DNA from: Candidatus Saccharimonadota bacterium
GTDB lineage: Bacteria; Patescibacteriota; Saccharimonadia; Saccharimonadales; SZUA-47
Direction of reading: 5' to 3'
NCBI GenBank assembly: GCA_016700315.1
Contig: CP065013.1
Span: 321,449-385,448 of the forward strand
Length of the DNA stretch: 64,000 nucleotides
The notes beneath the pieces are model-generated. The model saw only the letters and a list, made by a program, of their open reading frames with translations. It was not told the origin of the DNA and did not search any database. Both the position numbers and the translations under genes were made by a program. Below, piece by piece: positions 34,303 to 46,644 of the stretch (position 1 is the stretch's first letter; every line of letters starts with the position of its first letter).

Positions 34303-34507
34303 TGACTCAATTATATCCCGCAGGTCAGGTATTTAGGAAAATATTCAATAACGATCAGTTCATAAATTTTACTAAAACCGAAGGGCCAGCCAAGATCTAT
34401 CATCCCGTAAGCTACCTCCATACATTAAACACCCCAATCAATCAACCCGACTTCAGTTCATAATTCACAACATAACTCACACTATTTAACACCTCTAAAA
34501 CTCCAAA

Positions 34508-34564
34508 TTCACATTTCCCTCCTCTGTATAAGGACGGACCTTATACAGAGGAGTTGGGCGTGAA
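34508..34564. repeat. long palindromic element, copy A
   Basis: ttcacatttccctcctctgtataagg-acgga-ccttatacagaggagttgggcgtgaa. The perfect core is ctcctctgtataagg/ccttatacagaggag. The flanks (about 34440-34640) are also similar to copy B in inverted orientation. Confidence 0.8.
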
Positions 34565-34703
34565 TTGGGCGGTTTGCTCAAGATTTAGAGTGTTGTGGAG
34601 GTCTGAGTTATGGTTAGATCGCTATATGGCTTTGCCCAACAGGTCTAAGGAGCACCGGCTAGCCTTGGTTCTTACCTCTTATCTCTGCTACCATGTAACA
34701 GAT

Positions 34704-35810
34704 ATGATCGTTTTAGGGATTGAAACCAGTTGCGATGAAACTTCGGTCGGGATTGTCGAGCTTAACGATACAAGCAAAGGGGCGACACTCTATGCCAACG
34801 CCGTGCTTTCAAGCATGGACTTACACACAAAATACGGTGGAGTTGTACCCGAAATAGCTGCCCGTGAACATATCAAAGCTATGCCTATCGTTATCGAAAA
34901 AGCTTTTGAGCAAGCTGGCATGAGTTGGGAAGATATAGATGCTATAGCCGTAACTAACGGCGCCGGGCTTGGCGGATCGTTGCTTGTCGGTGTAATGACT
35001 GCACGAACCCTAGCCATTACCCAGAACAAACCACTATATGCCTGCAACCACGTCGAAGGTCATGTGTACGCTAACTTTTTAACAAGCCAACAGTCAACAG
35101 AAGACAGTCGACAGAAAACTCAACTTAGCAACTACCAGCTACCATCTACCACACCCCAGTTCCCTATCCTTGCACTGATTGTCAGCGGAAATCATACTCA
35201 ACTAGTCCTCTTTAAAGATCACTTTGATTATAGGTTACTCGGCCAAACTCACGATGATGCTATAGGTGAGGCTTTTGATAAATGCGCCAAAATAACTGGT
35301 CTCCCCTACCCTGGTGGCCCGTCGATTGCCGCCAAAGCCAAAGAGGGCGATACTCAAGCCTTCGATCTGCCAAAAGCGAAAATGCCAGGTAAGTACGACT
35401 TCAGCTTCTCTGGCGTAAAAACCGCTACTCTAAGACAGGCTCAGGCCATGTGTGGTGAGGATTTCACCTTTCCGTCTAAGAACCTGCCAGAACGCCTCTC
35501 AGAGCCTCAGAAGGCCAACATTGCTGCCGTGTTCCAACGTGTCGCGATCGAAACCGTGGTCGACAAGACAGCTTTGGCTTACGAAGAGTTCGGTCCCGCT
35601 TCTGTGATCATCGCAGGTGGTGTCGCCGCCAGCACGGAGCTACGCCGCCAACTATCTGAACGTCTGCCGATGGACATAAACTATGCCGATATCAAGCTAT
35701 GCACGGACAATGGAACTATGATTGCCTGCCTTGGGGCATACAAAGCTCTATTAGGCCAACCCAAAGCCGAGCCATACTCTCTAGAAATCAATCCCAACCT
35801 ATCTATGTAA
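34704..35810 (+). CDS. tsaD: tRNA N6-adenosine threonylcarbamoyltransferase TsaD
   Basis: MIVLGIETSCDETSVGIV..., HVEGHV, and GGVAAS. The start is set at ATG 34704 because the track's 50-aa N-terminal extension reads through the palindromic repeat. The stop TAA (35808-35810) overlaps the MITE terminus. Confidence 0.9.
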   Translation: MIVLGIETSCDETSVGIVELNDTSKGATLYANAVLSSMDLHTKYGGVVPEIAAREHIKAMPIVIEKAFEQAGMSWEDIDAIAVTNGAGLGGSLLVGVMTARTLAITQNKPLYACNHVEGHVYANFLTSQQSTEDSRQKTQLSNYQLPSTTPQFPILALIVSGNHTQLVLFKDHFDYRLLGQTHDDAIGEAFDKCAKITGLPYPGGPSIAAKAKEGDTQAFDLPKAKMPGKYDFSFSGVKTATLRQAQAMCGEDFTFPSKNLPERLSEPQKANIAAVFQRVAIETVVDKTALAYEEFGPASVIIAGGVAASTELRRQLSERLPMDINYADIKLCTDNGTMIACLGAYKALLGQPKAEPYSLEINPNLSM

Positions 35811-36102
35811 CCCCAGCTCGACATAAGGCAACCCAAGTAAACAGGAATTACACGTTTGCACCTTTTTGGCGAAAATCTCCGTTCCGTGCTCACCGTACGT
35901 TAAGTACGGCTCGGCTTGCGGTACTCTATTTTCATCCGAAAATGCACTAAACACGTAATTCCTGGTAAATATACATTTGTATCTGTAAATCTAATCACTA
36001 CGGCGTATTTTACGTAACAACAGCTACGTAAGATACGACAGAAAGCAATCTTTACTAGCTAAAATGTATATTTATAGGTGTCGTTATGTCGAGCTGGGGT
36101 TA
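35808..36102. mobile_element. MITE-like element copy 1 (291-bp core between TA dinucleotides)
   Basis: Terminal inverted repeats ACCCCAGCTCGACATAA (35810-35826) and TTATGTCGAGCTGGGGT (36084-36100), with TA on both sides and no ORF. It is homologous to 44152-44320 in opposite orientation. Confidence 0.65.
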
Positions 36103-36568
36103 CGTAGTAAATATAGCAACGTTATGGTCTCTGTATTTGATAGTATTGACGAACTATGATATGCTTATGCTTGTAAAACAAAAATGGTTGTACTGACTGC
36201 AAGCCAATGCGGTTCGCACTTTTGAGACAAAATACAACTTAGACAGGAGCTAACAGATGACTTTCACGTGAAAGTTTATGTTGGTTTTTGTCTTTTTTTG
36301 GTATTTTTACCGTTTTATGGTCACCTTTCATTACCGTAGCCTTCATGTGGTCGTGTGAATACGCTCCCCTCGACCTTCCTGTTCAATGTTCTATGTCATG
36401 GCTGACAAATATTGCCTGCCGGCCTCTCTTGCAACTAAAGTATGCTGGTTTTATATTCAACTCTAAGAAGCTGGGGTTCTCCTCATGACAGGCGTCTCAT
36501 GACTCTTGTCTCGCTTGCTTCTTGCTTATGCTTTATACTTACCACTTTCTACTTTATACTTATTTCAT

Positions 36569-39112
36569 ATGGAGTTACCGAAGGCTTACACACCTTCTGA
36601 CTACGAGTCAGACATTTATGCGCTCTGGGAGAAGAGTGGTGTTTTTGAGCCCACCGAAAAAGGTGAACCATACTGTATGGTTATGCCGCCACCGAATGCG
36701 AATGCTGGCTTACACATTGGCCACTCGCTATTTTTTGCCATCGAAGATGTAATAATCCGCTACCAAAGAGCTCGAGGCAAGTCAGTTTTGTGGCTGCCAG
36801 GAGCCGATCATGCTGGTTTTGAAACACAGGTTGTCTACGAGAAGCACCTAGCAAAAGAGGGTAAGAGTCGTTTTGATCTTACCAGAGAAGAGCTCTACGA
36901 TCAGATATATCAATTTGTAGACGGTAATAAAGAAAGATTTTTCAATATCTTTCGCTCACTAGGTGCTAGCTGCGATTGGAGTAGGTTCACGTTTACCCTA
37001 GATGATAAGATCATAAAAACTGCCTACCAAACATTCAAAAAAATGTGGGATGACGGTTTGATTTACAGAGGTGAAAGATTAGTTAATTATTGCACCGAAC
37101 ATCGCACCGGCTTCGCCGATATTGAGGTAGAATACAAAACTGTTAAGACTCCACTTTACTACATCAAATATGGCCCTTTCACGTTGGCGACAACAAGACC
37201 AGAAACTAAGTTTGGCGACACTGGCGTAGCCGTCCATCCAAACGACGAACGTTACAAGCAGTGGGTTGGCCAGACGGTGACGGTCGAAGGAGTAAACGGG
37301 CCGTTCGAGGTCAGAGTAGTCGCCGATGATTTCGTCGATCCTAACTTCGGTACGGGGGTCGTCAAGATTACACCTGCGCACAGCTTTGACGACTGGGACG
37401 CTGCCCAGCGCCACAACTTGCCACCAGTTCGCGTAATCAACCACGACGGCAAAATGAACCACCACGCCGGCCCGTACGAGGGCATGACGGTTTTAGAAGC
37501 TCGTCAGGCAGTTGCCAAAAAACTAGATGAGATGGGGCTGATTGAGAAAGTTGAAAAAGATTACGAAACCAGGATTGGCCTCTGTTATAAGTGCGGCACG
37601 GTGATAGAGCCAATGCTACTGGACCAGTGGTTCGTTAACATGCGAAAGCTCGCAGAACCAGCAATCGAGGCACTGCAAAAAAACAAGATCAAGTTTTACC
37701 CAAACGCCAAACAGGATCAAACGATTTTGTACTTACAGAACGTCAAAGACTGGAATATCAGTCGGCAGATTGCTTGGGGGATACCAATTCCGGCTTTTCA
37801 GAATATAGACGACCAGGACGATTGGATATTTGACGACAGAGTAGAGCAACACACAATAGAAATTGATGGTAAGGTTTACCGGCGCGATCCCGACGTTTTC
37901 GACACTTGGTTTTCAAGCAGCCAGTGGCCATTTGCAACTCTTGGCTTCCCCGATTCTGATGACTTCAAGAAGTTCTACCCAAATGCGATTATGGAGACAG
38001 GGCAGGACATTCTCTACCAATGGGTGGCACGAATGATCTGTCTGGGGTTATACATCACAGGTGAGATTCCTTTTAAAGACGTTTACCTCCATGGCATGGT
38101 TAGGGCCGAGGATGGGCGTAAAATGAGTAAAAGCCTAGGAAATGTCGTCGATCCAAATAAGTACTTAGCAGAATACGGCTCCGATGCTCTTCGTATGGGT
38201 ATGCTTGCAGGCAGAAGCGCGGGCTACAGTGCTGCTTTTGCTCCGGCAAAAATCACTGCTGGTCGGAACTTCTGTAACAAGCTGTGGAACATAGCCAGAT
38301 TCATTCAAGTCAAAATAGGCGATAACGAAGTCTCTATATCTGCCAAGCCGGAAACTATAGTAGATCATTGGGTGTTGAGTAAACTACAACAATCATATAT
38401 CGAGGTAGGGAAGTTGCTCGATGACTACCGCTTCAGTGAGGCTTATGACCTTGTCTACCATTTAGCCTGGGACAGTGTTGCTGACTGGTATATTGAGGCC
38501 AGCAAGGGGCAGGGAAGTGCCGACATGATGGCTACCGTGCTTCACCACATTTTGATATTAGTGCACCCGTTTGCGCCTTTCGTTAGTGAAACAATCTGGC
38601 AAACCTTAGCTTGGGAAAAGGGTGTTTTAGCCGGTCAGACCTGGGAGAAGTTAGGTAATGCCAACTCCGATGAGGCTGCTAACTTCAATATGATTATTAA
38701 GCTCGTAACAGAGATAAGAGCAATTTCATCGGATCTGAAAATTAAGTCTTTCACGATGTATTACTCCGACGGGGAACTGATCGAAGAAAACGCACCACTG
38801 ATTAAACGGCTAGCCAACCTCACAGATATAAAGAAGGTAGACGATGGCGCTGGTCTATTCTTGAGCTCAACCGAGTACCGCGTCTGGCTAGATATCGACC
38901 ACGCTACTGCCAAGGTATACACCGACACACTGAGTAGCAAAGCCATTGAGCTCAAAAAGTCTATTGCCAACTTGCAGGGCAGACTGGCCAACAAAGCCTA
39001 TCTCGAGCTAGCGCCACGCGAACTGGTCGAACAGACCGAACAGGAGCTAAAAGCCGCTCAGACGCGTCTAGAAACGCTCACGGCCGACCTTGAACGCTTC
39101 GAGAAACTATAA
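36569..39112 (+). CDS. valS: valine--tRNA ligase
   Basis: PPPNANAGLHIGH (HIGH), KMSKSLGN, and a C-terminal coiled coil. The start is set at MELPKAYTPSDYE (36569). Confidence 0.95.
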   Translation: MELPKAYTPSDYESDIYALWEKSGVFEPTEKGEPYCMVMPPPNANAGLHIGHSLFFAIEDVIIRYQRARGKSVLWLPGADHAGFETQVVYEKHLAKEGKSRFDLTREELYDQIYQFVDGNKERFFNIFRSLGASCDWSRFTFTLDDKIIKTAYQTFKKMWDDGLIYRGERLVNYCTEHRTGFADIEVEYKTVKTPLYYIKYGPFTLATTRPETKFGDTGVAVHPNDERYKQWVGQTVTVEGVNGPFEVRVVADDFVDPNFGTGVVKITPAHSFDDWDAAQRHNLPPVRVINHDGKMNHHAGPYEGMTVLEARQAVAKKLDEMGLIEKVEKDYETRIGLCYKCGTVIEPMLLDQWFVNMRKLAEPAIEALQKNKIKFYPNAKQDQTILYLQNVKDWNISRQIAWGIPIPAFQNIDDQDDWIFDDRVEQHTIEIDGKVYRRDPDVFDTWFSSSQWPFATLGFPDSDDFKKFYPNAIMETGQDILYQWVARMICLGLYITGEIPFKDVYLHGMVRAEDGRKMSKSLGNVVDPNKYLAEYGSDALRMGMLAGRSAGYSAAFAPAKITAGRNFCNKLWNIARFIQVKIGDNEVSISAKPETIVDHWVLSKLQQSYIEVGKLLDDYRFSEAYDLVYHLAWDSVADWYIEASKGQGSADMMATVLHHILILVHPFAPFVSETIWQTLAWEKGVLAGQTWEKLGNANSDEAANFNMIIKLVTEIRAISSDLKIKSFTMYYSDGELIEENAPLIKRLANLTDIKKVDDGAGLFLSSTEYRVWLDIDHATAKVYTDTLSSKAIELKKSIANLQGRLANKAYLELAPRELVEQTEQELKAAQTRLETLTADLERFEKL

Positions 39113-39155
39113 GTAAACCCCCAAATTAATCTAAAACACCCATAGCCAACGCTGC

Positions 39156-39212
39156 TTCACATTTCTCTCCTCTGTATAAGGTCCGTCCTTATACAGAGGA
39201 GAGAAATGTGAA
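39156..39212. repeat. long palindromic element, copy B (perfect 26-bp stem)
   Basis: ttcacatttctctcctctgtataagg-tccgt-ccttatacagaggagagaaatgtgaa. The loop is the reverse complement of the copy A loop, so the two copies are inverted. Confidence 0.85.
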
Positions 39213-39364
39213 TTTGATGATTTACAGGTGTTAGTTTTTTGGATTTAGTTGTGATTTTTTTGCGAATTTTTATGAGTAAGCATCGACTCGCTGTAGCGCC
39301 CCAGTGCTGATGGCGAGAAGCAGCCCACTGAGCTTGCTATATTTTACAGGCTTAACATTAAGCT

Positions 39365-40219
39365 CTAGCCGAGGGCGTTTTTGATTCTTTTGATCGACTC
39401 TTCGGGGTAATAATCATCGAACCACATTACCTTCCAGCCGCATTTCTCGGCGGCCATGAGATTGGCGCGCGAATCATCGATAAATAAGATTTCCTCAGGG
39501 AGTACACCTGTTAATCCTTGCGCGATTTCGTATATTTTTGACTCGGGCTTAATAGCGCCGACTTCGGAACTGTCTACCACTGCAGCATAGTCGAGATGTG
39601 GAATCACACCTTTGTCGATCATAATCTGGATAAAACCGGGCATGATGTTGCTTAGTAGGCCAACCTGATAACGTTCAGCCGTCCATTCCAAAAGTTCTTT
39701 CATACCATCAATTGGCTCGATTGCTCCCAGGTAATAGTCAGTCCAGTCTACGCTGCTAACTCCTAATGTTTTGGCAAGAATATCATTAAAATCACTAAGT
39801 TTCATCTCGCCACGACAAACAGCGTCGTTGTAATGCCAGAATAGTGTCTCAATGCGATCATTGGGCACACCCGTTTCCTCTGCTAATACCGAGAAAGCTT
39901 TGTGAAAAAAGCGAACCAAACAACCATTAATATCAAAATAGATAAATTTTAGCGACGACTTCTGTTGCAACGATTTTGCGGCGTGCGGCAAACCCATTAG
40001 CTCGTCTAATGAAACCTTCGTAACTTGGGCGATTCGCTGGATTGTAAAAACAGATGGAGTTTTGATCGCACCACGTTCAATCTTGGCCAATGTTGAATAA
40101 GACAAGTCTGTTGCCTGCGCTAGCTGCTGCTGTGTTAGCCCGGCCGATTGGCGTGCTTGTTGCAAACGTTTTCCAAGACTAACTTCATCAACGGCTTCTG
40201 TATCGCCACCCATATTCAT
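39365..40219 (-). CDS. XRE-family HTH domain fused to a HAD-like hydrolase domain
   Basis: N-terminus LGKRLQQARQSAGLTQQQLAQATDLSYSTLAKIERG. The C-terminal part has IYFDINGCLV (motif I-like), GLLSNIMPG, and LFIDDSRANLMAAE (motif IV). Confidence 0.7.
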   Translation of the reverse strand: MNMGGDTEAVDEVSLGKRLQQARQSAGLTQQQLAQATDLSYSTLAKIERGAIKTPSVFTIQRIAQVTKVSLDELMGLPHAAKSLQQKSSLKFIYFDINGCLVRFFHKAFSVLAEETGVPNDRIETLFWHYNDAVCRGEMKLSDFNDILAKTLGVSSVDWTDYYLGAIEPIDGMKELLEWTAERYQVGLLSNIMPGFIQIMIDKGVIPHLDYAAVVDSSEVGAIKPESKIYEIAQGLTGVLPEEILFIDDSRANLMAAEKCGWKVMWFDDYYPEESIKRIKNALG

Positions 40220-40285
40220 AAGCTTATAGTACCAGTAAATCTGCCTTAAGACTAGTATTAAACGGCTAGCTGCTAACTCTAGGCC

Positions 40286-40456
40286 TTATACAATAAAGCT
40301 CAATACCGTTAACGCCACTACAAAAACCAAAACACCGACAGCACCCCCTGCAGTCAGTGCTGTCTGTTGATTGCCGCCAGTTCTACGAAGTGCTTTAGTG
40401 TAGACCCAAGTACCACTACCGAGTGCTGTTAGAAGGGCTACTAAAGTGTTAGACAT
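40286..40456 (-). CDS. small two-TM membrane protein (56 aa); not in the ORF track
   Basis: Own codon-by-codon translation: MSNTLVALLTALGSGTWVYTKALRRTGGNQQTALTAGGAVGVLVFVVALTVLSFIV*. A strong SD (AAGGAG) lies 9 nt upstream. It lies directly downstream of the HIT gene. Confidence 0.45.
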   Translation of the reverse strand: MSNTLVALLTALGSGTWVYTKALRRTGGNQQTALTAGGAVGVLVFVVALTVLSFIV

Positions 40457-40476
40457 AATAAAATTCTCCTTGCTGT

Positions 40477-40872
40477 TTAAGCGTTCTTAAGTTTTTCGGC
40501 TATTCTGGCTAGTTCATCGTGGTTTGGTTCAGCCTGATCATTGGGCGACTGATATTGCTCATGAGTGTCAAAAGGGAAGAGGTTGGCATGGGCGTGCTCG
40601 ACCTGTAGACCCTCGATCTGTACGGCTATTTTGCGCTTGTCGGGGAAAACTGTACGGAGTTTTTTGGCCACATCCTGAACTGCTTTTGTAAACTGTTGAT
40701 ACTCAAGCGGCGACAGGTCTTCGAAATGAGGAACTTGTTTTTTGGTAATCACTACAACATGCCCAGGCTGAATTGGGTGGATGTCCATGATAGCGATGGC
40801 TCCATCATTTTCGTAAACCTTGTGAGCCGGCAACTCACCCATAATAATCTTGGTAAAAACTGAATCCTGCAT
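40477..40872 (-). CDS. HIT-family (histidine triad) protein
   Basis: Histidine triad VEHAHANLFP and GHVVVITKK. Confidence 0.85.
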   Translation of the reverse strand: MQDSVFTKIIMGELPAHKVYENDGAIAIMDIHPIQPGHVVVITKKQVPHFEDLSPLEYQQFTKAVQDVAKKLRTVFPDKRKIAVQIEGLQVEHAHANLFPFDTHEQYQSPNDQAEPNHDELARIAEKLKNA

Positions 40873-40973
40873 ACCCTTATTATACCTTTAAACACCATCT
40901 ACACTAAATTGGCTCGCATAATTTTAACAGATACGGTAACATATTATAGTAGTTTAGGGCGCGCGACATAACC

Positions 40974-41218
40974 GCGGAGGAGTACCCAAGTGGCTGCTGC
41001 GTGAAACGTAAATTTGTAGACGGTTTGCCGTCCCCTTCAGTTTACGGACACACAGGAGCTACGTGAATAACGTAAGCTTTCAATGCGGAGGAGTACCCAA
41101 GTGGCTGCTGCGTGAAACGTAAATTTGTAGACGGTTTGCCGTCCCCTTCAGTTTACGGACACACAGGAGCTACGTGAATAACGTAAGCTTTCAATGCGGA
41201 GGAGTACCCAAGTGGCTG
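40974..41218 (+). repeat. 111-bp tandem repeat (2.2 copies) whose unit begins with the 5' part of tRNA-Ser(GCT)
   Basis: Units start at 40974, 41085 and 41196, each with gcggaggagtacccaagtggctg. Units 1 and 2 continue with an 88-nt non-tRNA segment, and unit 3 continues into the complete tRNA. Confidence 0.9.
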
Positions 41219-41290
41219 AAGGGGACGGTTTGCTAAATCGTTAGGGGGGCGCAAGTTCCCGCGAGAGTTCGAATCTCTCCTCCTCCGCCA
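41198..41290 (+). tRNA. tRNA-Ser (anticodon GCT), class II, CCA encoded
   Basis: Hand-folded. Acceptor GGAGGAG/CTCCTCC, anticodon stem acggt/atcgt with loop ttGCTaa, long variable arm, T-arm gagag-ttcgaat-ctctc, and G73-CCA. Confidence 0.85.
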
Positions 41291-41504
41291 GAATAAAACT
41301 CTGCTAAAGTGCAATTTAGAATATGTTTATAATCTAAATTAGCACCTGGTGCGGAGTTTTATTCTTTTCCCCAAACAATCGGAATTGTTTGGGGAACTAG
41401 CAATGGCGTGCTGTTTTTCGAGCATTCTAAGTCTATTTTACCTACCGCAGAAGCTTGACCCAATGATAAACGAACCCTTGTGACATTGGTGGTACAATAA
41501 GCTT

Positions 41505-42044
41505 ATGGATAATGATGATAAGACGGGGAACTGGCAGTACCAAACAGACGAAGCGCTACCCGAGCAAGGTACTGATGCAGGGGTAGTACAGCCAATTCAA
41601 TGGTCAGCTTCAGAATATGTCGGGCACGAAAAGTCGTTGGGCTGGTACATAATTTTTGGCAGCGCTTCGTTGATAATCGGAGTTTTGGTTTACGCGCTTA
41701 CCCGTAGCCCGTTTTCGGCTGTGGCGGTTCTGCTAGCCTGCATCTGTTTGGCGGTGTTCGGTGCTAGACAACCTAGTCAAATACCGTACGAGATTGATGC
41801 CAAAGGGGTAAGGGTAGGAAGACGCTTCTTCTCCTACAGTCAATTTAAGTCCTTCTCTCTAGTCCCAGAGGGTGCGATCTACACAATCTGGTTAAGATCA
41901 TTAAAAAAGTACACGCCGACGGTCGCACTGTACTTCGCGCCAGAAGATGCCGACAAGATTATCGACGCACTCGGCCAGTATCTGCCGCACGAGGAACGTG
42001 CCCCCGACGCCATCGACCGAGTCAGCCAACGATTTAGATTTTAG
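41505..42044 (+). CDS. hypothetical membrane protein (179 aa, two TM segments plus a small soluble domain)
   Basis: ORF with the hydrophobic pair YIIFGSASLIIGVLVYAL / AVAVLLACICLAVFG. Confidence 0.5.
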   Translation: MDNDDKTGNWQYQTDEALPEQGTDAGVVQPIQWSASEYVGHEKSLGWYIIFGSASLIIGVLVYALTRSPFSAVAVLLACICLAVFGARQPSQIPYEIDAKGVRVGRRFFSYSQFKSFSLVPEGAIYTIWLRSLKKYTPTVALYFAPEDADKIIDALGQYLPHEERAPDAIDRVSQRFRF

Positions 42045-42118
42045 AGCTTTATTTTTTGATGAATTTGTAATATAATTACCTCTGTTATTGACAGCCTTCA
42101 GCAAGGCATGCAAGATAA

Positions 42119-42195
42119 GCACCCGTAGCTCAGATGGATAGAGCGTCAGTTTGCGGTACTGAAGGTCGTAGGTTCGACTCCTGCCGGGTGTACCA
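42119..42195 (+). tRNA. tRNA-Arg (anticodon GCG), CCA encoded
   Basis: Hand-folded cloverleaf. Acceptor GCACCCG/CGGGTGT (G1-U72), D-arm gctc...gagc, anticodon stem tcagt/actga with loop ttGCGgt, and T-arm gtagg-ttcgact-cctgc. Confidence 0.8.
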
Positions 42196-42349
42196 AATTA
42201 ATAATTCGTACATTGTAAGCACAAGCTACCTGCTAAAAACCTTCAGTTGAAGGGAATAGGTGAGAATTGCCTGTGGCAATTCGCAAGGAAATAAACTCTT
42301 GAAAACTTGTTTTCAAAGAAGTTTTTTCGGGGTCGCCGAAGGTGACCGG

Positions 42350-42367
42350 CTCCTGCCGGGTGTACCA
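42350..42367 (+). repeat. 18-nt direct duplicate of the tRNA-Arg 3' end
   Basis: ctcctgccgggtgtacca occurs at 42178-42195 (tRNA 3' end) and again at 42350-42367, a 172-bp spacing. Confidence 0.85.
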
Positions 42368-42387
42368 GTTTATTAAAGCCCCCTTAT

Positions 42388-42478
42388 GGAAGGGTCGCAT
42401 AGTTGGTCTAGTGCGCTGCACTCGAAATGCAGTATGTCGGAAACGGCATCGAGAGTTCGAATCTCTCCCCTTCCGCCA
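42388..42478 (+). tRNA. tRNA-Ser (anticodon CGA), class II, CCA encoded
   Basis: Acceptor GGAAGGG/CCCTTCC, anticodon stem ctgca/tgcag with loop ctCGAaa, long variable arm, and T-arm gagag-ttcgaat-ctctc. Confidence 0.85.
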
Positions 42479-42491
42479 TATATTTGCCCAT

Positions 42492-42581
42492 GGAGAGGTG
42501 TCCGAGTGGTTTAAGGAAACGGTCTTGAAAACCGTCGTGCCGGCAACGGTACCGAGAGTTCGAATCTCTCCCTCTCCGCCA
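42492..42581 (+). tRNA. tRNA-Ser (anticodon TGA), class II, CCA encoded
   Basis: ggagaggtgtccgagtggtttaaggaaacggtcttgaaaaccgt... gives anticodon loop ctTGAaa, a long variable arm, and T-arm gagag-ttcgaat-ctctc. Confidence 0.9.
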
Positions 42582-42589
42582 AGGAGGGA

Positions 42590-42625
42590 AGCTCACATCT
42601 TCAGATGTGGGCTTTTCTTCTTTAT
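42590..42625 (+). terminator. rho-independent terminator after the tRNA cluster
   Basis: agctcacatc-ttca-gatgtgggct followed by tttcttctttat. Confidence 0.6.
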
Positions 42626-42712
42626 AAAGAAGAGAAATTTGAACATAAAGAGTTCGCTAATTAGTCTTATTACCGAGATATATCTCGGCTAATAGATTAA
42701 TTAGGTAGATTC

Positions 42713-42730
42713 ATCTCTCCCTCTCCGCCA
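42713..42730 (+). repeat. 18-nt direct duplicate of the tRNA-Ser(TGA) 3' end
   Basis: atctctccctctccgcca occurs at 42564-42581 (tRNA 3' end) and again at 42713-42730, a 149-bp spacing. Confidence 0.85.
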
Positions 42731-42922
42731 GCCCTGACTTTTGCATTTTTTGGATTTCTACCCGCGCCCAATTTCTTTCTGAATTAGAAAAAAGTCAGGT
42801 CTATCGGGTCGGCTGCCCAAAAGGACAGAAACGACGTTGTGTGCCTTAAGTATAAGCGCTTTGCGTTTGATTTTTATAGCATTTTATGCTAGTATTATAT
42901 ATGCAAAGTTCAAAACAAAAAT

Positions 42923-44095
42923 ATGCCAGAAAAAGCCCCGTTTAACCCCCACCAATCGTCTCATGACAGCTCTGACCTGGGTGGTGCTGTAGACCCATCA
43001 ATTTTGAGCGGTAACGCCCCTTTGCAGATACGCTTCAACACTTTCGCAGAAGCTAGAACGACCCCAAGACCTTTCTCTGACGAGTTTATTGACACTTTTA
43101 CCGATACTCCTACAGCGATTAACGGTATCAAGAGTTATCTTGACGACGTAAAGCCAACCTACAGAGATAAAGAGGTCATAGGCGACTCAGACCGCATCGC
43201 CGAGCTGTATATTAAAACAACGGAAATGATAGCCCGTAATTTGCGCGTAAAGGTAGACCAGGGTAAAGCTGGTGTAACCGCAGAGCAAATCCAAAGAGAT
43301 GGCGAGGCGACACTCCAAAGACTATGGGGATACAGAGTTAATGTACCAGAGGGGCTGAAACGCCATCATATTAGCGCAACAAACCCGCAGGCAACAAATA
43401 AAGACAAGTTTTTAGATGACGAAACAATATCAGGATTAGAGTATAGGGGTTTCGATTTTAATCGCCCGGGCGTACGCGCCAACTTCCATATTCAGCGTCA
43501 AAACTTTACAACATTTATTATGGCCTATTCCGACGGTCGCGTGCAGGAAAAAATGGCCGGCACGAGCACGATTTTAGACAAAAGAATATACCTAAATCCC
43601 GATATGGAAGCTACGCCAAGACTGTTTGAGCAATTGCTTCAGGCAGCCAACCAAGCAGGTATACCTATACAACTAAAGATGGTTCAACGAGCAACGGAGG
43701 CACTAAACGCACACCTTAAAGCCGCTAAAGGCGATGAAGTAGGGTTGCGCGGCGATGGAATTGTGGTATATACAGACGGCGAACACGCTGATGATACTTT
43801 AGCTATGGTGCTTGCTTTGGCACAGGACAACTCAGACGCTTTTAGGGGCCGTCCTCATAGTCGCACGCCTCAGAATGTTGCCGAAGGTATTGGTATAGCT
43901 GACGAACCAATTCAAGAGCCTGGTATTTCACTAACTTCTCATAGAACAGAGGTGTTGAAGAGTGTTGCCGGACAAGTTGCAGCGTCAGGGAAAAAGGGCG
44001 ACGAAGCGCATGCTATGTTCCGCCATTTATGGCAAAACACGGCGGTAGCCAACGGTATTGACCCCAACAATCTTGCCTTTAACATAGCTACATAA
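42923..44095 (+). CDS. hypothetical protein (390 aa), orphan on a repeat-bounded islet
   Basis: Long ORF. The pattern KRIYLNPDMEATPRLFEQLL...IQLKMV...GDGIVVYTD only weakly reminds me of HopA1/lyase-like families and is not verifiable here. Confidence 0.55.
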   Translation: MPEKAPFNPHQSSHDSSDLGGAVDPSILSGNAPLQIRFNTFAEARTTPRPFSDEFIDTFTDTPTAINGIKSYLDDVKPTYRDKEVIGDSDRIAELYIKTTEMIARNLRVKVDQGKAGVTAEQIQRDGEATLQRLWGYRVNVPEGLKRHHISATNPQATNKDKFLDDETISGLEYRGFDFNRPGVRANFHIQRQNFTTFIMAYSDGRVQEKMAGTSTILDKRIYLNPDMEATPRLFEQLLQAANQAGIPIQLKMVQRATEALNAHLKAAKGDEVGLRGDGIVVYTDGEHADDTLAMVLALAQDNSDAFRGRPHSRTPQNVAEGIGIADEPIQEPGISLTSHRTEVLKSVAGQVAASGKKGDEAHAMFRHLWQNTAVANGIDPNNLAFNIAT

Positions 44096-44151
44096 TAATA
44101 ACCGACAGTTCTTTATATAGAAGGGTGTTTTGCACAATTGAGTTCGCTGAC

Positions 44152-44320
44152 TAACCCCAGCTCGACATAAGCAACACCTGTTAATGGTTGTTTTAAGTAG
44201 TAAAGATTGCTTTATCTTATGTTTTTCGTAGCTGTCTGTTACCAAAAATATTAGACAAAGATAATATTCACAGTAATAAACAGGCATCAATCTGGGTTGT
44301 CTTATGTCGAGCCGGGGTTA
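44152..44320. mobile_element. MITE-like element copy 2 (165-bp core between TA dinucleotides)
   Basis: TA-ACCCCAGCTCGACATAAG...CTTATGTCGAGCCGGGGT-TA. Internal blocks (tagtaaagattgcttt, cgtagctgt.tgttac) match the reverse complement of copy 1. It interrupts a ~70-bp sequence that has an uninterrupted paralogue at 42617-42688. Confidence 0.65.
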
Positions 44321-44380
44321 ACTAGTCTTATTACCAAGATTTATCTCTCTGTCTCAAGGCAAGATGCTAATTTTATGGAT

Positions 44381-45058
44381 TTACCTGGTTTTTTGAGAAA
44401 AGACTGCGGCGTTAACGTGGCGGACGCCAGAGGCGCGCAGGGCTCGAGCTGCTTCTCTGATTGTCGAGCCGGTGGTATAAACATCATCAACTATTAATAC
44501 ATCTTGGCCGACGACGTATCGCGGCTTAGTAACATAGATTTTACCAATCAGTTGTTTGCGGCGCTCATCGGCTTTTGTGCCTACCTGAGCCTTTTGATCC
44601 AGACGAGCCAAAACAGGCTCATAAACCGCACCAAGTAAGCAGGCAAGTTCCTTGGCTATCATCTGGCTGTGGTCAAAGCCACGGCTACGGACGTGTTTGG
44701 TAATCGTCGGACAGGGGATAATAAGCGTCTGAGGTTTCATATAAGGCAGGGTCTCTGCAAGACTTTTGGCCATCTGGCGAGCCGCCTGGCGTTTGCCGCC
44801 AAACTTGAGAGCTTTTACAAGCTTTTTGGAGACCGAACTGTAGTCTGAAGCAACCCATATGTGCGCAACAGGAAATTCCTTTTTTGCAGCGTCACACAGG
44901 CTATAGCTGGTGCTTAGCTTTAGACAGTGTGCGCAACGACTCGGTGGTGGCACTACAAACTCCAAACGGCATGCCTCACAGACAATATCGCCTTCGTCAC
45001 CACACCCAACACAGTCATTCGGAGCTACGAACGATAATAATTTATCTAAAACCCTCAT
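44381..45058 (-). CDS. comFC: ComF-family protein (double zinc ribbon plus phosphoribosyltransferase domain)
   Basis: CVGCGDEGDIVCEACRLEF...CAHC and the PRTase motif VLIVDDVYTTGSTI. Confidence 0.8.
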   Translation of the reverse strand: MRVLDKLLSFVAPNDCVGCGDEGDIVCEACRLEFVVPPPSRCAHCLKLSTSYSLCDAAKKEFPVAHIWVASDYSSVSKKLVKALKFGGKRQAARQMAKSLAETLPYMKPQTLIIPCPTITKHVRSRGFDHSQMIAKELACLLGAVYEPVLARLDQKAQVGTKADERRKQLIGKIYVTKPRYVVGQDVLIVDDVYTTGSTIREAARALRASGVRHVNAAVFSQKTR

Positions 45059-45273
45059 GGTATTAACTCCCTTAAAAGCTAGTGTTGTGATTTTTGCGTT
45101 GTAAATTTAGTATGTCGGTTGCGCTCGGTTTAAGCCTTAAGCTATACTGGGATTAACACAAAAAGGCAAACATCAGCGCTTATCTAACACCCGACAAGGT
45201 GGATACTTGGGATTATACAGATTGACAGCGCTTTAACCATGAGCAAGAACTAATTTAGCCATAAGGAGGGAAA

Positions 45274-45765
45274 ATGGCCCGCAAAAATCGTGATGACGAC
45301 TTATTAATGGAAGATGAGCTAACGGCTGCGTTTTTGGGTGATGACCCAATGATGGACGATCAGTCAGCCAGTAATGACCCAACAAGTAGCCCGCAAGTTA
45401 GCGACAGCCCGGCAGATGACTGGGATGAAGAAGAGACGGTACCTGGCCAGCTAGCTGTTGATGTTTTTGAAACACGTGAGAAACTAGTCGTCAAAGCTCG
45501 CACAGCAGGTGTTAATAAGAACGATCTAGATGTTTCTATCGCCGACAATACTTTGAGCATTCGTGGCACACTTAGTGACGGTACAGAAGAAAGCGTTGAG
45601 AACTATTTTGTTCAAGAATGTTACTGGGGAGAATTCAGCCGCAGCATAGCACTTCCAGTACCCGTCAAAGAAGATGAGATTGAAGCCGTGCTCAAAGACG
45701 GCGTGTTGACCATTAGCTTTACTAAAGTGAAGCAAGATACCGTGAAGAAGATCCAGGTTTTGTAA
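45274..45765 (+). CDS. Hsp20/alpha-crystallin family small heat-shock protein
   Basis: GQLAVDVFETREKLVVKARTAGVNKNDLDVSIADNTLSIRG...FSRSIALPVPV...LKDGVLTISF. AAGGAGGG SD upstream. Confidence 0.85.
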   Translation: MARKNRDDDLLMEDELTAAFLGDDPMMDDQSASNDPTSSPQVSDSPADDWDEEETVPGQLAVDVFETREKLVVKARTAGVNKNDLDVSIADNTLSIRGTLSDGTEESVENYFVQECYWGEFSRSIALPVPVKEDEIEAVLKDGVLTISFTKVKQDTVKKIQVL

Positions 45766-45788
45766 AACAAACACACGGAACAAAAAAA

Positions 45789-45816
45789 TCGCTCCTCGAA
45801 AGAGGGGCGATTTTTT
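45789..45816 (+). terminator. rho-independent terminator after hsp20
   Basis: tcgctcctc-gaaa-gaggggcga followed by tttttt, with an A-run upstream (potentially bidirectional). Confidence 0.65.
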
Positions 45817-45866
45817 GACACATCATTACCTACATACCGTTTTTTACAATATTACTATAATACTTA

Positions 45867-45902
45867 ATAACAGGGTCAGACCCTGACATCTGTTATTTTT
45901 TG
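45867..45902 (+). repeat. REP-like palindromic element flanking the Y1 transposase gene (left)
   Basis: ataacagggtcagaccctgacatctgttattttttg, with inverted repeats CAGGGTC/GACCCTG and ATAACAG/CTGTTAT. Confidence 0.8.
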
Positions 45903-45934
45903 TTATATACAAAGTATAGTATATTTAAGTAGGA

Positions 45935-46558
45935 ATGCCTGGTAAAAATTCTCGTAAAATTTATTCGTCCGAACACTACTATCATGTCTATAACCGTGGT
46001 GTTGGTAAGCAAATTATTTTTCATGACAGCTTTGATAAATCCCATTTCTTACACATAATTAAGCGCCACCTAGACCCAACGGATAAGTCCACTAGGTCTG
46101 ATAAGCTTCCTTACCGCAAGTTTAACGACGACATTGAATTACTCAGTTACTGTCTGATGGGTAACCATTTTCATCTTTTGCTTTACGTCAAAGGCAGGGC
46201 AGAGAATCTACCGATATTCATACAGTCGGTTATGACAGCCTACACAATGCACTATAACAAGCGCTACAAGAGAGTAGGGAGCTTATTTCAGGGAGTATAT
46301 AAGGCGAGTATGATACTTGATGAATCGTACTTGTTACATATAACAAGATACATACACCTTAACCCTAGAAATTATCAAAACTACTTTTATTCGAGTTTGA
46401 GATATTACCTAGATGGCTCTATCTGCCCTAAATGGCTGAACCCAAAACGCATACTAGAGATGTTCGAGAAGGAAGAATATAAAATATTCGTCGAGGATAG
46501 ATTATCTTACGAAGAATCATTGCCGATACTTAAGAAGTTTGAACTTGCCCATCCTTAG
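45935..46558 (+). CDS. IS200/IS605-type Y1 (HUH) transposase-like protein, RAYT-like
   Basis: YHVYNRG, the HUH motif GNHFHLLL, YNKRYKRVGSLFQGVYK, and the catalytic-Tyr helix ITRYIHLNP. It is a single gene flanked by inverted REP-like elements. Confidence 0.8.
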   Translation: MPGKNSRKIYSSEHYYHVYNRGVGKQIIFHDSFDKSHFLHIIKRHLDPTDKSTRSDKLPYRKFNDDIELLSYCLMGNHFHLLLYVKGRAENLPIFIQSVMTAYTMHYNKRYKRVGSLFQGVYKASMILDESYLLHITRYIHLNPRNYQNYFYSSLRYYLDGSICPKWLNPKRILEMFEKEEYKIFVEDRLSYEESLPILKKFELAHP

Positions 46559-46608
46559 CCCTTAGACTAACCATAAATTTCTCGCGCAATGCCACAAAAC
46601 CTATATTG

Positions 46609-46644
46609 CAAAAAATAACAGATGTCAGGGTCTGACCCTGTTAT
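46609..46644 (-). repeat. REP-like palindromic element flanking the Y1 transposase gene (right, inverted)
   Basis: caaaaaataacagatgtcagggtctgaccctgttat is the reverse complement of the left copy with one central change. Confidence 0.8.

Follow-up and report, generated by a model that had tools for sequence, protein, structure and literature searches.

Among the described systems closest to the one discussed here are transcribed spacers with a function of their own. In Escherichia coli the 3' external transcribed spacer (ETS) of the glyW-cysT-leuZ precursor tRNA (pre-tRNA) acts as a sponge for small RNAs, and the 5' leader of 16S rRNA pairs transiently with the mature 5' domain and guides its folding. 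The locus that we compare with them lies in a stretch of 64,000 nucleotides (nt) from a Candidatus Saccharimonadota genome (assembly GCA_016700315.1, contig CP065013.1, positions 321,449 to 385,448 of the forward strand), hereafter called the window, in which the gene for tRNA-Ser(GCU) is preceded by two tandem 111-nt units, each consisting of a copy of the tRNA 5' end (A') and an 88-nt segment (X). X is a structured, strand-specific and conserved RNA element: its genomic context is conserved, its predicted fold is more stable on the tRNA strand, and its helices carry compensatory changes. On balance we think it probable that the window has two tandem copies of a conserved leader RNA of about 100-130 nt, lying between a promoter and tRNA-Ser(GCU) and predicted to pair with that tRNA in the precursor. 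We found no earlier description, for bacteria, of conserved structured 5' leaders that imitate and pair with their own tRNA.

The repeat itself is exact. Tandem Repeats Finder reported one array, at 40974-41218, with a period of 111, 2.2 copies, 100% matches and no indels. The repeated 23-mer (A), GCGGAGGAGTACCCAAGTGGCTG, comprises 2 nt of leader and positions 1-21 of the tRNA and starts at 40974, 41085 and 41196; the first two copies are each followed by an X segment, with no mismatch between the two segments, as an earlier note on this DNA had stated. In 100 shuffles no such match arose. Only the third copy runs into a complete class II tRNA-Ser(GCU), which both ARAGORN and Rfam (RF00005, 53.7 bits) call there alone. 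The same note had described the unit as a mosaic of sense and antisense pieces of the tRNA together with other sequence, duplicated in tandem, and this description is right. The piece GACGGTTTGC of X (at 41019 and 41130) is identical to tRNA 41224-41233, in the anticodon-stem region, and the following piece, CCGTCCCCTTCAG, is over its 13 nt the reverse complement of tRNA 41216-41228, without a mismatch. Among the exact matches of 10 nt or longer that X has anywhere in the window, this 13-mer alone falls in the opposite strand of the adjacent tRNA; leaving aside what matches the tRNA, 10-14-mers of X occur elsewhere in the window at chance level. There is no further copy of X in the window with 3 mismatches allowed. 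A degenerate third X upstream of the first A was also looked for and not found, the local alignment scores being matched or beaten by 428 of 500 shuffles for the window and by 232 of 500 for the related locus L011.

The earlier note had taken the unit to be peculiar to this locus, but the same A'-X unit is present in 73 other loci and it is only the doubling that is local. In the species census, in which one genome per species was scanned for the 21-nt tRNA 5' end, there were at least 120 loci, nearly all of them from metagenome-assembled genomes of Candidatus Saccharibacteria. Nine among the 120 species loci listed have X-like sequence directly upstream of tRNA-Ser(GCU), and three of the nine (L025, L029 and L133) have a second exact 21-mer 112-115 nt upstream, as in the window. 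The oral Nanosynbacter representative, L079, is without the element. Metagenomes were searched with the most conserved 19-mer of X, GTGGCTGCTGCGTGAAACG, which matched 72 contigs: 64 have the element and 8 are chance matches in GC-rich coding DNA. The next tRNA downstream is tRNA-Ser(GCU) in 55 of the 64, the remainder being ended by the contig or locus edge, and in those 55 the tRNA starts 85-120 nt past the 19-mer, except in L201 (204 nt). A covariance model, R1, gives 99.8 bits to the window units and 22 bits to the opposite strand, and scores L105, which is without the 19-mer, at 50.6 bits. Applied to the 120 species loci listed it found no carriers beyond the nine seen by eye, L105 included, and neither in the window nor in about 1.3 Mb of related loci did it find a copy that was not beside tRNA-Ser(GCU). 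Wherever relatives have the segment it is directly upstream of tRNA-Ser(GCU), and in these searches it was never found apart from that tRNA.

Across the 73 loci the spacing of the A copies is about 100-130 nt, with 218 nt in L172 and L201, and the left edge of the repeated block varies by lineage, being 0, 2, 4, 8 or 12 nt upstream of the first nucleotide of the tRNA. The gene downstream of the tRNA, for a DUF5673 protein, is syntenic in carriers and non-carriers, so that loci with and without the element can be taken as orthologous. Between the identity of X and that of the neighbouring protein r is 0.125, on a measure of identity that saturates and so says little on vertical as against horizontal inheritance. 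The tail of X is the least conserved part across the family. In L013 tRNA-Ser(GCU) is preceded by 15 nt, ACGTAAGCTTTCAAT, that match the 3' end of the window X exactly; in the species of L013-L016 the DUF5673 protein is 62% identical, and each of the four contigs ends at the tRNA 5' end or within it. An extra conserved block of about 105 nt (...AACCAAGCCAGAGGCTGTTTG...GAGAGGAG...GCTTTCGAACTTGTT...), with no Rfam match, accompanies the element in four loci, upstream of A' in L029 and L074 and between X and the tRNA in L172 and L201.

X is predicted to fold as a long bent hairpin (helices P1', P1b and P2) followed by a second hairpin, P4. For 62 unique copies, treated without alignment, the mean folding z score on the tRNA strand is -3.6, with 79% of copies below -2, against a mean of -2.7 on the opposite strand (paired Wilcoxon p = 1e-4). 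When 74 instances are aligned with the model, 74.7% of cells are paired against 69.9% after shuffling, and on four of five covariation measures the observed value was reached by none of 500 shuffles, figures that have to be read with the alignment being fitted by a model and the sequences being related. If the partners are slid by 1-3 columns, pairing falls to 30-45%. P4 (GAGCUACGU...ACGUAAGCUU) has double-sided compensatory changes at 9 of its 9 pairs, and in the tip hairpin P2 (GACGG / CCGUC) 92% of cells are paired. In the case of P1' (CUGCGUG / CACACAG) the changes are one-sided only, the 5' strand being the search key. P1b (ACGYAAA / UUURCGU) is misaligned by column: register shifts in a variable region defeated column-based covariation, and it was analysed sequence by sequence instead. 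It is present in 53 of the 62 minimum free energy (MFE) folds, and position Y34 is in a C-G pair in 29 sequences, U-A in 15 and U-G in 3, with non-pairs in 15. The abundance of G-U pairs is a good indication that we are dealing with an RNA of the sense strand, rather than with a protein site on double-stranded DNA.

Other possibilities within X were tried and set aside. A long-range helix between the D loop of A' (GUGGCU) and AGCUAC, obtained with RNAalifold on a MAFFT alignment, fails in that changes in AGCUAC are compensated in the 3' strand of P4 and not in A', and may at most be an alternative pairing. The unique units, compared by eye, gave no consistent pairing between positions 1-7 of A' and the tail that follows P4. 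P4 was rejected as an intrinsic terminator, there being a U-run behind it in some lineages only and no hit in a terminator scan here, and a small open reading frame (ORF) at AGGAG...GTG inside X lacks conservation between species.

The P2 hairpin follows the tRNA. Its arms are a sense copy (GGACGG) and an antisense copy (CCGUCCCC) of a single strand of the tRNA, GG-ACGG, made up of the 3' side of the D stem, position 26 and the 5' side of the anticodon stem, and in the window the antisense arm is lengthened from CCGUCCCC to CCGUCCCCUUCAG. With tRNAs of class ACGG the hairpin is GACGG/CCGUC (45 units), with class AUGG it is GAUGG/CCAUC in 5 of 8 units (one more pairs via G-U and two are degenerate short units), and with class CGGC it is GGCGGC with GUCGCC or GCCGCC in 5 of 6. 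Two C residues 3' of the hairpin, more than 90% conserved and with no partner within X, lengthen the match to the GGGG of the tRNA. Measured as the longest uninterrupted stretch, the complementarity of X to its own tRNA is 11 nt in the median and up to 18-20 nt, as compared with a 95th percentile of 10 and a maximum of 14 after shuffling, and wobble pairs are present in 40 of 55 X-tRNA duplexes. One example of the long variants is AAACCAUCCCCUUCAGCCAU, against tRNA positions 15-34. These long variants have an extra antisense CUUCAG(CC) paired to a downstream sense copy, CUGAAG(G), as hairpin P3, so that in them the antisense strand is flanked by two sense "covers". The window X has a long antisense segment (13 nt) without the P3 cover, which leaves CCUUCAG free.

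The position of promoters bears on how the unit is expressed. Of 107 non-carrier loci, 84 have an extended -10 (TGnTAnAAT-like) in the 100 nt before the tRNA, at 10-63 nt and mostly within 40 nt; in carriers it is found within the same distance of the first A' in 53 of 75 loci, mostly at 6-49 nt, and inside a unit in 2 of the 75 only. As these distances are alike, A' can be said to occupy the usual place of the tRNA 5' end, and from the -10 positions the unit is probably transcribed as a 5' leader of the pre-tRNA. The window's own candidate -10 (Table 1) was not flagged by the consensus scan.

For the window, a precursor of one unit plus tRNA has a predicted MFE of -84.3 kcal/mol, against about -74.3 kcal/mol for leader and cloverleaf folded separately. 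In this fold A' pairs with the 3' acceptor strand of the tRNA, the antisense segment pairs with the authentic tRNA 5' half (P = 0.999), and ACGGUUU of X pairs with the 3' strand of the anticodon stem, the T arm and variable arm remaining native. In the precursor with both units it is the proximal unit that is predicted to pair with the tRNA (P = 0.93), the distal unit being folded on itself.

Pairing in cis between leader and tRNA is thus a plausible mechanism, and it could operate as follows. Transcription from the upstream promoter would place the unit at the front of the precursor as its 5' leader, and RNase P would remove it by cutting at the true tRNA 5' end. While it is still attached, the antisense segment would leave its P2 (and P3) cover and pair with the 5' half of the tRNA. 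An intact A' could take the place of the real 5' end in the acceptor helix, as an optional extra, and in some lineages a perfect A' may be kept by recombination with the tRNA. The precursor would then alternate between a processable cloverleaf and a trapped form, and this alternation may modulate the folding, RNase P processing or decay of tRNA-Ser(GCU). A plausible conserved core for such a model is CCCAAGUGGCUG plus X. Much more tentatively, we may be seeing a hitherto undescribed form of RNA control built into Saccharibacteria tRNA precursors, with a spare 5' end and an antisense clamp that is held inactive by the sense-copy arms, strand exchange switching the precursor between an RNase P-ready cloverleaf and a trapped, possibly RNase III-sensitive, form, to give a conditional tRNA supply that is tunable by unit number.

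Several observations weigh against the leader-pairing reading. Antisense-tRNA pairing of at least 8 bp is in the predicted MFE of only 12 of 54 loci and A'-acceptor pairing in 13, with the native acceptor helix in 27, and over these 54 loci the mean gain of joint over separate folding is only -3.5 kcal/mol, with nearest-neighbour energies that ignore tRNA tertiary structure; the trapped fold is dominant in a subset of loci only, and was rejected as a universal MFE. About half of the units show decay in the first 10 nt of A', along a gradient from 5' to 3', so the spare acceptor strand is not essential, and where A' is perfect this could be due to gene conversion rather than selection. The match between P2 and tRNA could in part come from gene conversion of the sense arm with a later compensatory change, and behind the three tRNA classes there may be no more than two independent events in evolution. 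The exact 19-mer brought in most of the family members, and that block is therefore invariant by construction. Lastly the element is missing from about 90% of the sampled species with the same tRNA 5' end, and is to that extent dispensable.

Table 1. Features of the tRNA-Ser(GCU) locus, numbered from the first nucleotide of the window
Feature	Position	Strand	Basis or remark
Candidate tRNA promoter -10 (TATTAT / TATAGT)	40942..40950	+	About 25 nt upstream of first repeat; read by eye, weak
A' copy 1: 2 leader nt + tRNA 1-21 (acceptor 5' strand, D-stem 5' strand, most of D loop)	40974..40996	+	Exact sequence copy
X copy 1, promoter-distal unit, 88 nt, structured	40997..41084	+	RNA MFE -29.5 kcal/mol, z -3.6; 99.8 bits to model R1 over 40976-41086
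A' copy 2	41085..41107	+	Repeat identity
X copy 2, tRNA-proximal unit	41108..41195	+	100% identical to copy 1; 99.8 bits to R1 over 41087-41197
P2 tip hairpin, proximal unit: GACGG, loop UUUG, CCGUC	41130..41143 (unit 1: 41019-41032)	+	GACGG is a sense copy of the tRNA anticodon-stem 5' strand; predicted fold
Antisense segment CCGUCCCCUUCAG	41139..41151 (unit 1: 41028-41040)	+	Perfectly complementary to tRNA 41216-41228
P4 3' hairpin, proximal unit: GAGCUACGU / ACGU-A-AGCUU	41167..41191 (unit 1: 41056-41080)	+	Predicted fold; all 9 pairs with double-sided changes family-wide
Third 23-mer copy, the true tRNA gene start (2 leader nt + tRNA 1-21)	41196..41218	+	Sequence
Intact class II tRNA-Ser(GCU), sole one in window	41198..41290	+	ARAGORN, Rfam
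tRNA segment CUGAAGGGGACGG: end of D loop, D-stem 3' strand, position 26, anticodon-stem 5' strand	41216..41228	+	Complementary to leader antisense segment

The decay of A' and the patchy occurrence of the element would also be expected if the units had no RNA function, being DNA-level relics of an old partial duplication, template switch or integration in the 5' part of the tRNA, now neutral and subject to gene conversion. Many lineages show an A' eroded from its 5' end and others a perfect one, as would happen under occasional conversion, the left edge of the block varies between lineages from 0 to 12 nt, most species are without the element, and duplications of tRNA ends evidently arise readily in these genomes, as inserts flanked by exact copies of a tRNA 3' end accompany 33 of the 430 tRNAs in the fetched loci. 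We nevertheless regard a neutral relic as unlikely. Four helices are maintained, with compensatory changes and sense-strand G-U pairs, in loci where the neighbouring protein is only 25-40% identical, and the two conserved unpaired C residues extend the complementarity to the tRNA. Conversion of a 6-nt patch that is 22 unrelated nt away from A' is itself improbable, and the co-change of hairpin and tRNA is seen even where A' is highly degenerate (L147 and L145).

It is also possible that the unit acts in trans, A'-X being released as a small RNA that either mimics the tRNA and titrates a tRNA-binding factor (a modification enzyme or a PIN/VapC-type toxin) or serves as an anti-tRNA for unfolded tRNA-Ser(GCU), with more units giving a higher dose. 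A' and the P2 sense arm do imitate the 5' end, D loop and anticodon stem of the tRNA, X folds stably alone, arrays of 2-4 units would fit selection for dosage, and the leuZ 3'ETS is a precedent for a functional tRNA spacer. However P2 has a variable loop of 3-4 nt and no anticodon loop, and would imitate an anticodon arm only poorly for any factor that binds one; half of the members have not conserved the acceptor part of A'; and there is no co-occurring partner gene in the loci examined. The invariable place immediately 5' of the tRNA suggests a cis role, and we doubt that a trans function is the primary explanation, while noting that a trans-acting leader would be compatible with a role in cis.

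The earlier note had offered scars of repeated site-specific recombination as one explanation of the units, and in its fullest form this would make them miniature integrative elements (attachment-site (att) scars akin to cis-mobilisable elements, CIMEs) that target the D-loop region of tRNA-Ser(GCU), supply a replacement 5' end, depend on an integrase in trans and form arrays by accretion. The layout of A, X, A and the rest of the tRNA is that expected of integration with an identity block of 21-23 nt, the 23-nt direct repeats of a tRNA segment bound each X, A' is at the normal promoter distance as if X plus A had been inserted into the gene, tandem arrays and a patchy distribution fit mobility, and the same genomes have 3'-end inserts with repeats from the T loop to CCA, which is the classical integrase sublocation. 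Set against this, the 73 other loci show no large or mobile element between the A copies, no intact related elements and no fixed crossover, in a survey that did not systematically screen the flanking genes for integrases. Two X motifs had 0 matches among 2.9 million viral contigs (IMG/VR). The left edge of the repeated block, and with it the boundary of identity, is not fixed (0-12 nt), which disfavours a site-specific crossover, and to our knowledge tRNA-targeting integrases use the anticodon loop, T loop or 3' end and not the 5' part. In addition X is in all these loci a covarying RNA whose structure is strand-specific, with G-U pairs, always beside tRNA-Ser(GCU) and matched to the local tRNA variant genome by genome, which speaks for long residence and co-evolution and not for transfer. 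We thus consider an integrative origin of this type quite improbable, and the scar explanation is not upheld.

The doubling can be examined within the species. The upstream HIT protein (40477-40872, minus strand) is present in exact form on 23 public contigs. L001 (GCA_029781765.1), L002 and L003 all span the locus and have a single X (A-X-A-tRNA), as does L011, in which the downstream protein is 96% identical to that of the window and X has one mismatch. L001 has 96.0% identity to the window left of the locus and 99.6% right of it, so that one against two units is a within-species difference, and as the two units of the window are identical the doubling is recent. L011 shows the same asymmetry (93.9% left and 98.8% right). 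This step in identity falls at the tRNA locus (34478-41107 against 41085-45885, with genes for ValRS, HAD and HIT proteins on the left) and may mark a recombination breakpoint at or near the repeat, or reflect gene-specific rates.

Several Logan contigs (k=31) from independent sequencing runs stop exactly at A plus 7 nt of X, which implies an array of at least two units, because only then does the next k-mer (A plus 8 nt of X) have two predecessors, and one of them, L010, reads A-X-A and the first 7 nt of a second X. Several samples therefore have alleles of two or more units, and the array of the window is not an artefact of assembly. That the strain really has one unit is very hard to believe: perfect tandem repeats below the read-pair length can be miscounted, and L001, L002, L003 and L011 each have one unit, but the Logan contigs of independent runs branch at A+7, L010 enters a second X, and arrays of diverged units in other species indicate a locus that is prone to expansion. 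L155 has four diverged units; L148 and L179 have two each, L206 has no fewer than two, and in L172 there are two with a period of 218 nt. Most genomes with the element have a single unit.

The 23-nt repeats provide a simple route for both gain and clean loss of units, and so for natural copy-number polymorphism within a species. Unequal homologous recombination (crossing-over) or replication slippage between A repeats, most likely the origin of the doubling in the window, would convert A'-X-A to A'-X-A-X-A, and the reciprocal product would be a single A, that is clean loss of the element to leave an ordinary tRNA gene at the normal promoter distance. Such loss would explain the patchy distribution, and recombination between A' and A fits the polymorphism of 1, 2 and 4 units, the low number of carriers (nine among the 120 species loci listed) despite synteny, and the lineage-specific left edges.

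With regard to existing classes, the earlier note knew of no standard feature of this kind and neither do we. Its two other explanations, a pseudo-tRNA leader and a processed small RNA, come closest of the three to the evidence. The upstream units themselves give no tRNA match, either with ARAGORN or with the Rfam tRNA model even at E <= 10. Rfam 15 gives only tRNAs in the window at the gathering threshold, nothing credible over 40700-41500 at E <= 10, and only tRNAs in six other element-bearing loci. There are no dispersed copies, as would be expected of miniature inverted-repeat transposable elements or repetitive extragenic palindromes of the RAYT type, in the 64-kb window or in the 1.3 Mb or so of related loci, despite an IS200/RAYT-like ORF at 45935-46558. 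An array of clustered regularly interspaced short palindromic repeats was rejected because the "spacers" are identical 88-mers and the repeat is a tRNA 5' end, and the antitoxin repeats of a type III toxin-antitoxin (TA) system because the unit is 111 nt long and is followed by the tRNA and then by the DUF5673 membrane protein. No description of the element was found in the literature available for searching, including searches with the motif sequence itself and the Weinberg 2017 catalogue.

Other features of the window and of related loci may be recorded here. In the window tRNA-Arg(GCG) (42119-42195) is followed by an insert at 42196-42367, and tRNA-Ser(TGA) (42492-42581) by one at 42582-42730; both trailers have a 131-154-nt insert that closes with an exact 18-nt copy of the tRNA 3' end, from the T loop through CCA. 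Inserts of this type were counted across fetched loci for Ser-GCU, Ser-UGA, Arg-GCG and Ser-GGA. A terminator-like hairpin opens the insert in most of 13 examples inspected, that of the window tRNA-Arg being an exception, and several then have antisense and sense copies of the T-arm region, mirroring the 5' element. Such inserts may have been left by integrases, or may represent structured trailers of a second class. In L125 an exact copy of tRNA-Arg(GCG) positions 1-16 lies about 89 nt upstream of that gene and is followed by a 73-nt leader, otherwise unrelated, with GCGCUCUAUCCAGCUG, which is complementary to the D loop and D stem of tRNA-Arg over 16 nt including one G-U. This is a single case, as 14 pattern matches are taken to be, for the most part, opposite-strand D-arms belonging to other tRNA genes. 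The mirror-image trailers (Ser(UGA), Arg(GCG) and Ser(GCU)) and this one tRNA-Arg leader of like design would, on the more tentative reading given above, point to a general principle that goes beyond one motif. In L195, 168 nt upstream of tRNA-Ser(CGA), there is a partial copy of positions 1-21, an insert of about 85 nt, positions 23-41, a promoter-like TTATTATAAT and then the intact gene; as the insert is at the position where A' ends, D-loop position 21/22 may be a recurrent breakpoint.

The IS200/RAYT-like ORF, for a Y1 transposase, is in a stretch of about 740 bp (45886-46625) that is missing in L001, otherwise 99% identical, and in L011, and the stretch is a within-species insertion polymorphism. 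A 22-nt inverted repeat (91%) at 40213-40234 and 41490-41511, TGGTACAATAAGCTTATG, is at the starts of two divergent genes, for an HTH-HAD protein (minus strand) and the DUF5673 protein (plus strand), each with a TACAAT -10 box 6 nt before the ATG, an arrangement that points to mRNAs without a leader and to a promoter/start module common to both genes.

If the pairing of leader and tRNA is functional, we would have a cis RNA device for the maturation of one essential tRNA, in ultra-small, host-dependent bacteria with few protein regulators. There is also a lesson for annotation. Partial tRNA copies and tandem repeats in candidate phyla are easily dismissed as assembly errors or integration scars, and the tRNA-Ser(GCU) locus with its element does break short-read assemblies, but here they constitute a conserved element.

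We conclude by returning to known systems. The array resembles the ToxI-like arrays of type III TA systems in having tandem structured RNA units in variable copy number, but those units are of about 36 nt and precede the endoribonuclease toxin that processes them, while ours are of about 111 nt, tRNA-derived and before a tRNA. As with attL/attR repeats and CIMEs, a short insert lies between exact direct repeats of a tRNA gene, with a functional tRNA at one end and accretion possible, but it is the 5' and not the 3' part of the tRNA that is repeated, the boundaries are variable, and the insert is a covarying RNA matched to the local tRNA. The split tRNAs of Nanoarchaeum equitans also have a stand-alone 5' portion followed by sequence complementary to the other part of the precursor; here, however, an intact contiguous tRNA gene follows, the organism is a bacterium, and A' ends in the D loop and not at 37/38. 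Like the thrS operator, with its mimic of the anticodon arm, and the T-box, the element is a leader RNA constrained by a particular tRNA that it partly imitates, but those leaders precede protein genes and act on translation or termination, whereas this one precedes the tRNA itself and has no specifier, T-box, anticodon loop or Rfam match. With functional ETS sequences such as the leuZ 3'ETS and the 16S leader it would share being a conserved, co-transcribed spacer that is removed in processing, and with the 16S leader also pairing in cis, but it differs from both in holding a copy of the 5' end of the mature RNA, in its co-evolving sense/antisense hairpin and in its tandem arrays. A copy of its own tRNA's 5' end, a co-evolving hairpin of this type and tandem amplification are combined in none of these nearest systems, and the element, apparently undescribed, is from its sequence and context best seen as a structured leader or spacer RNA in kind.

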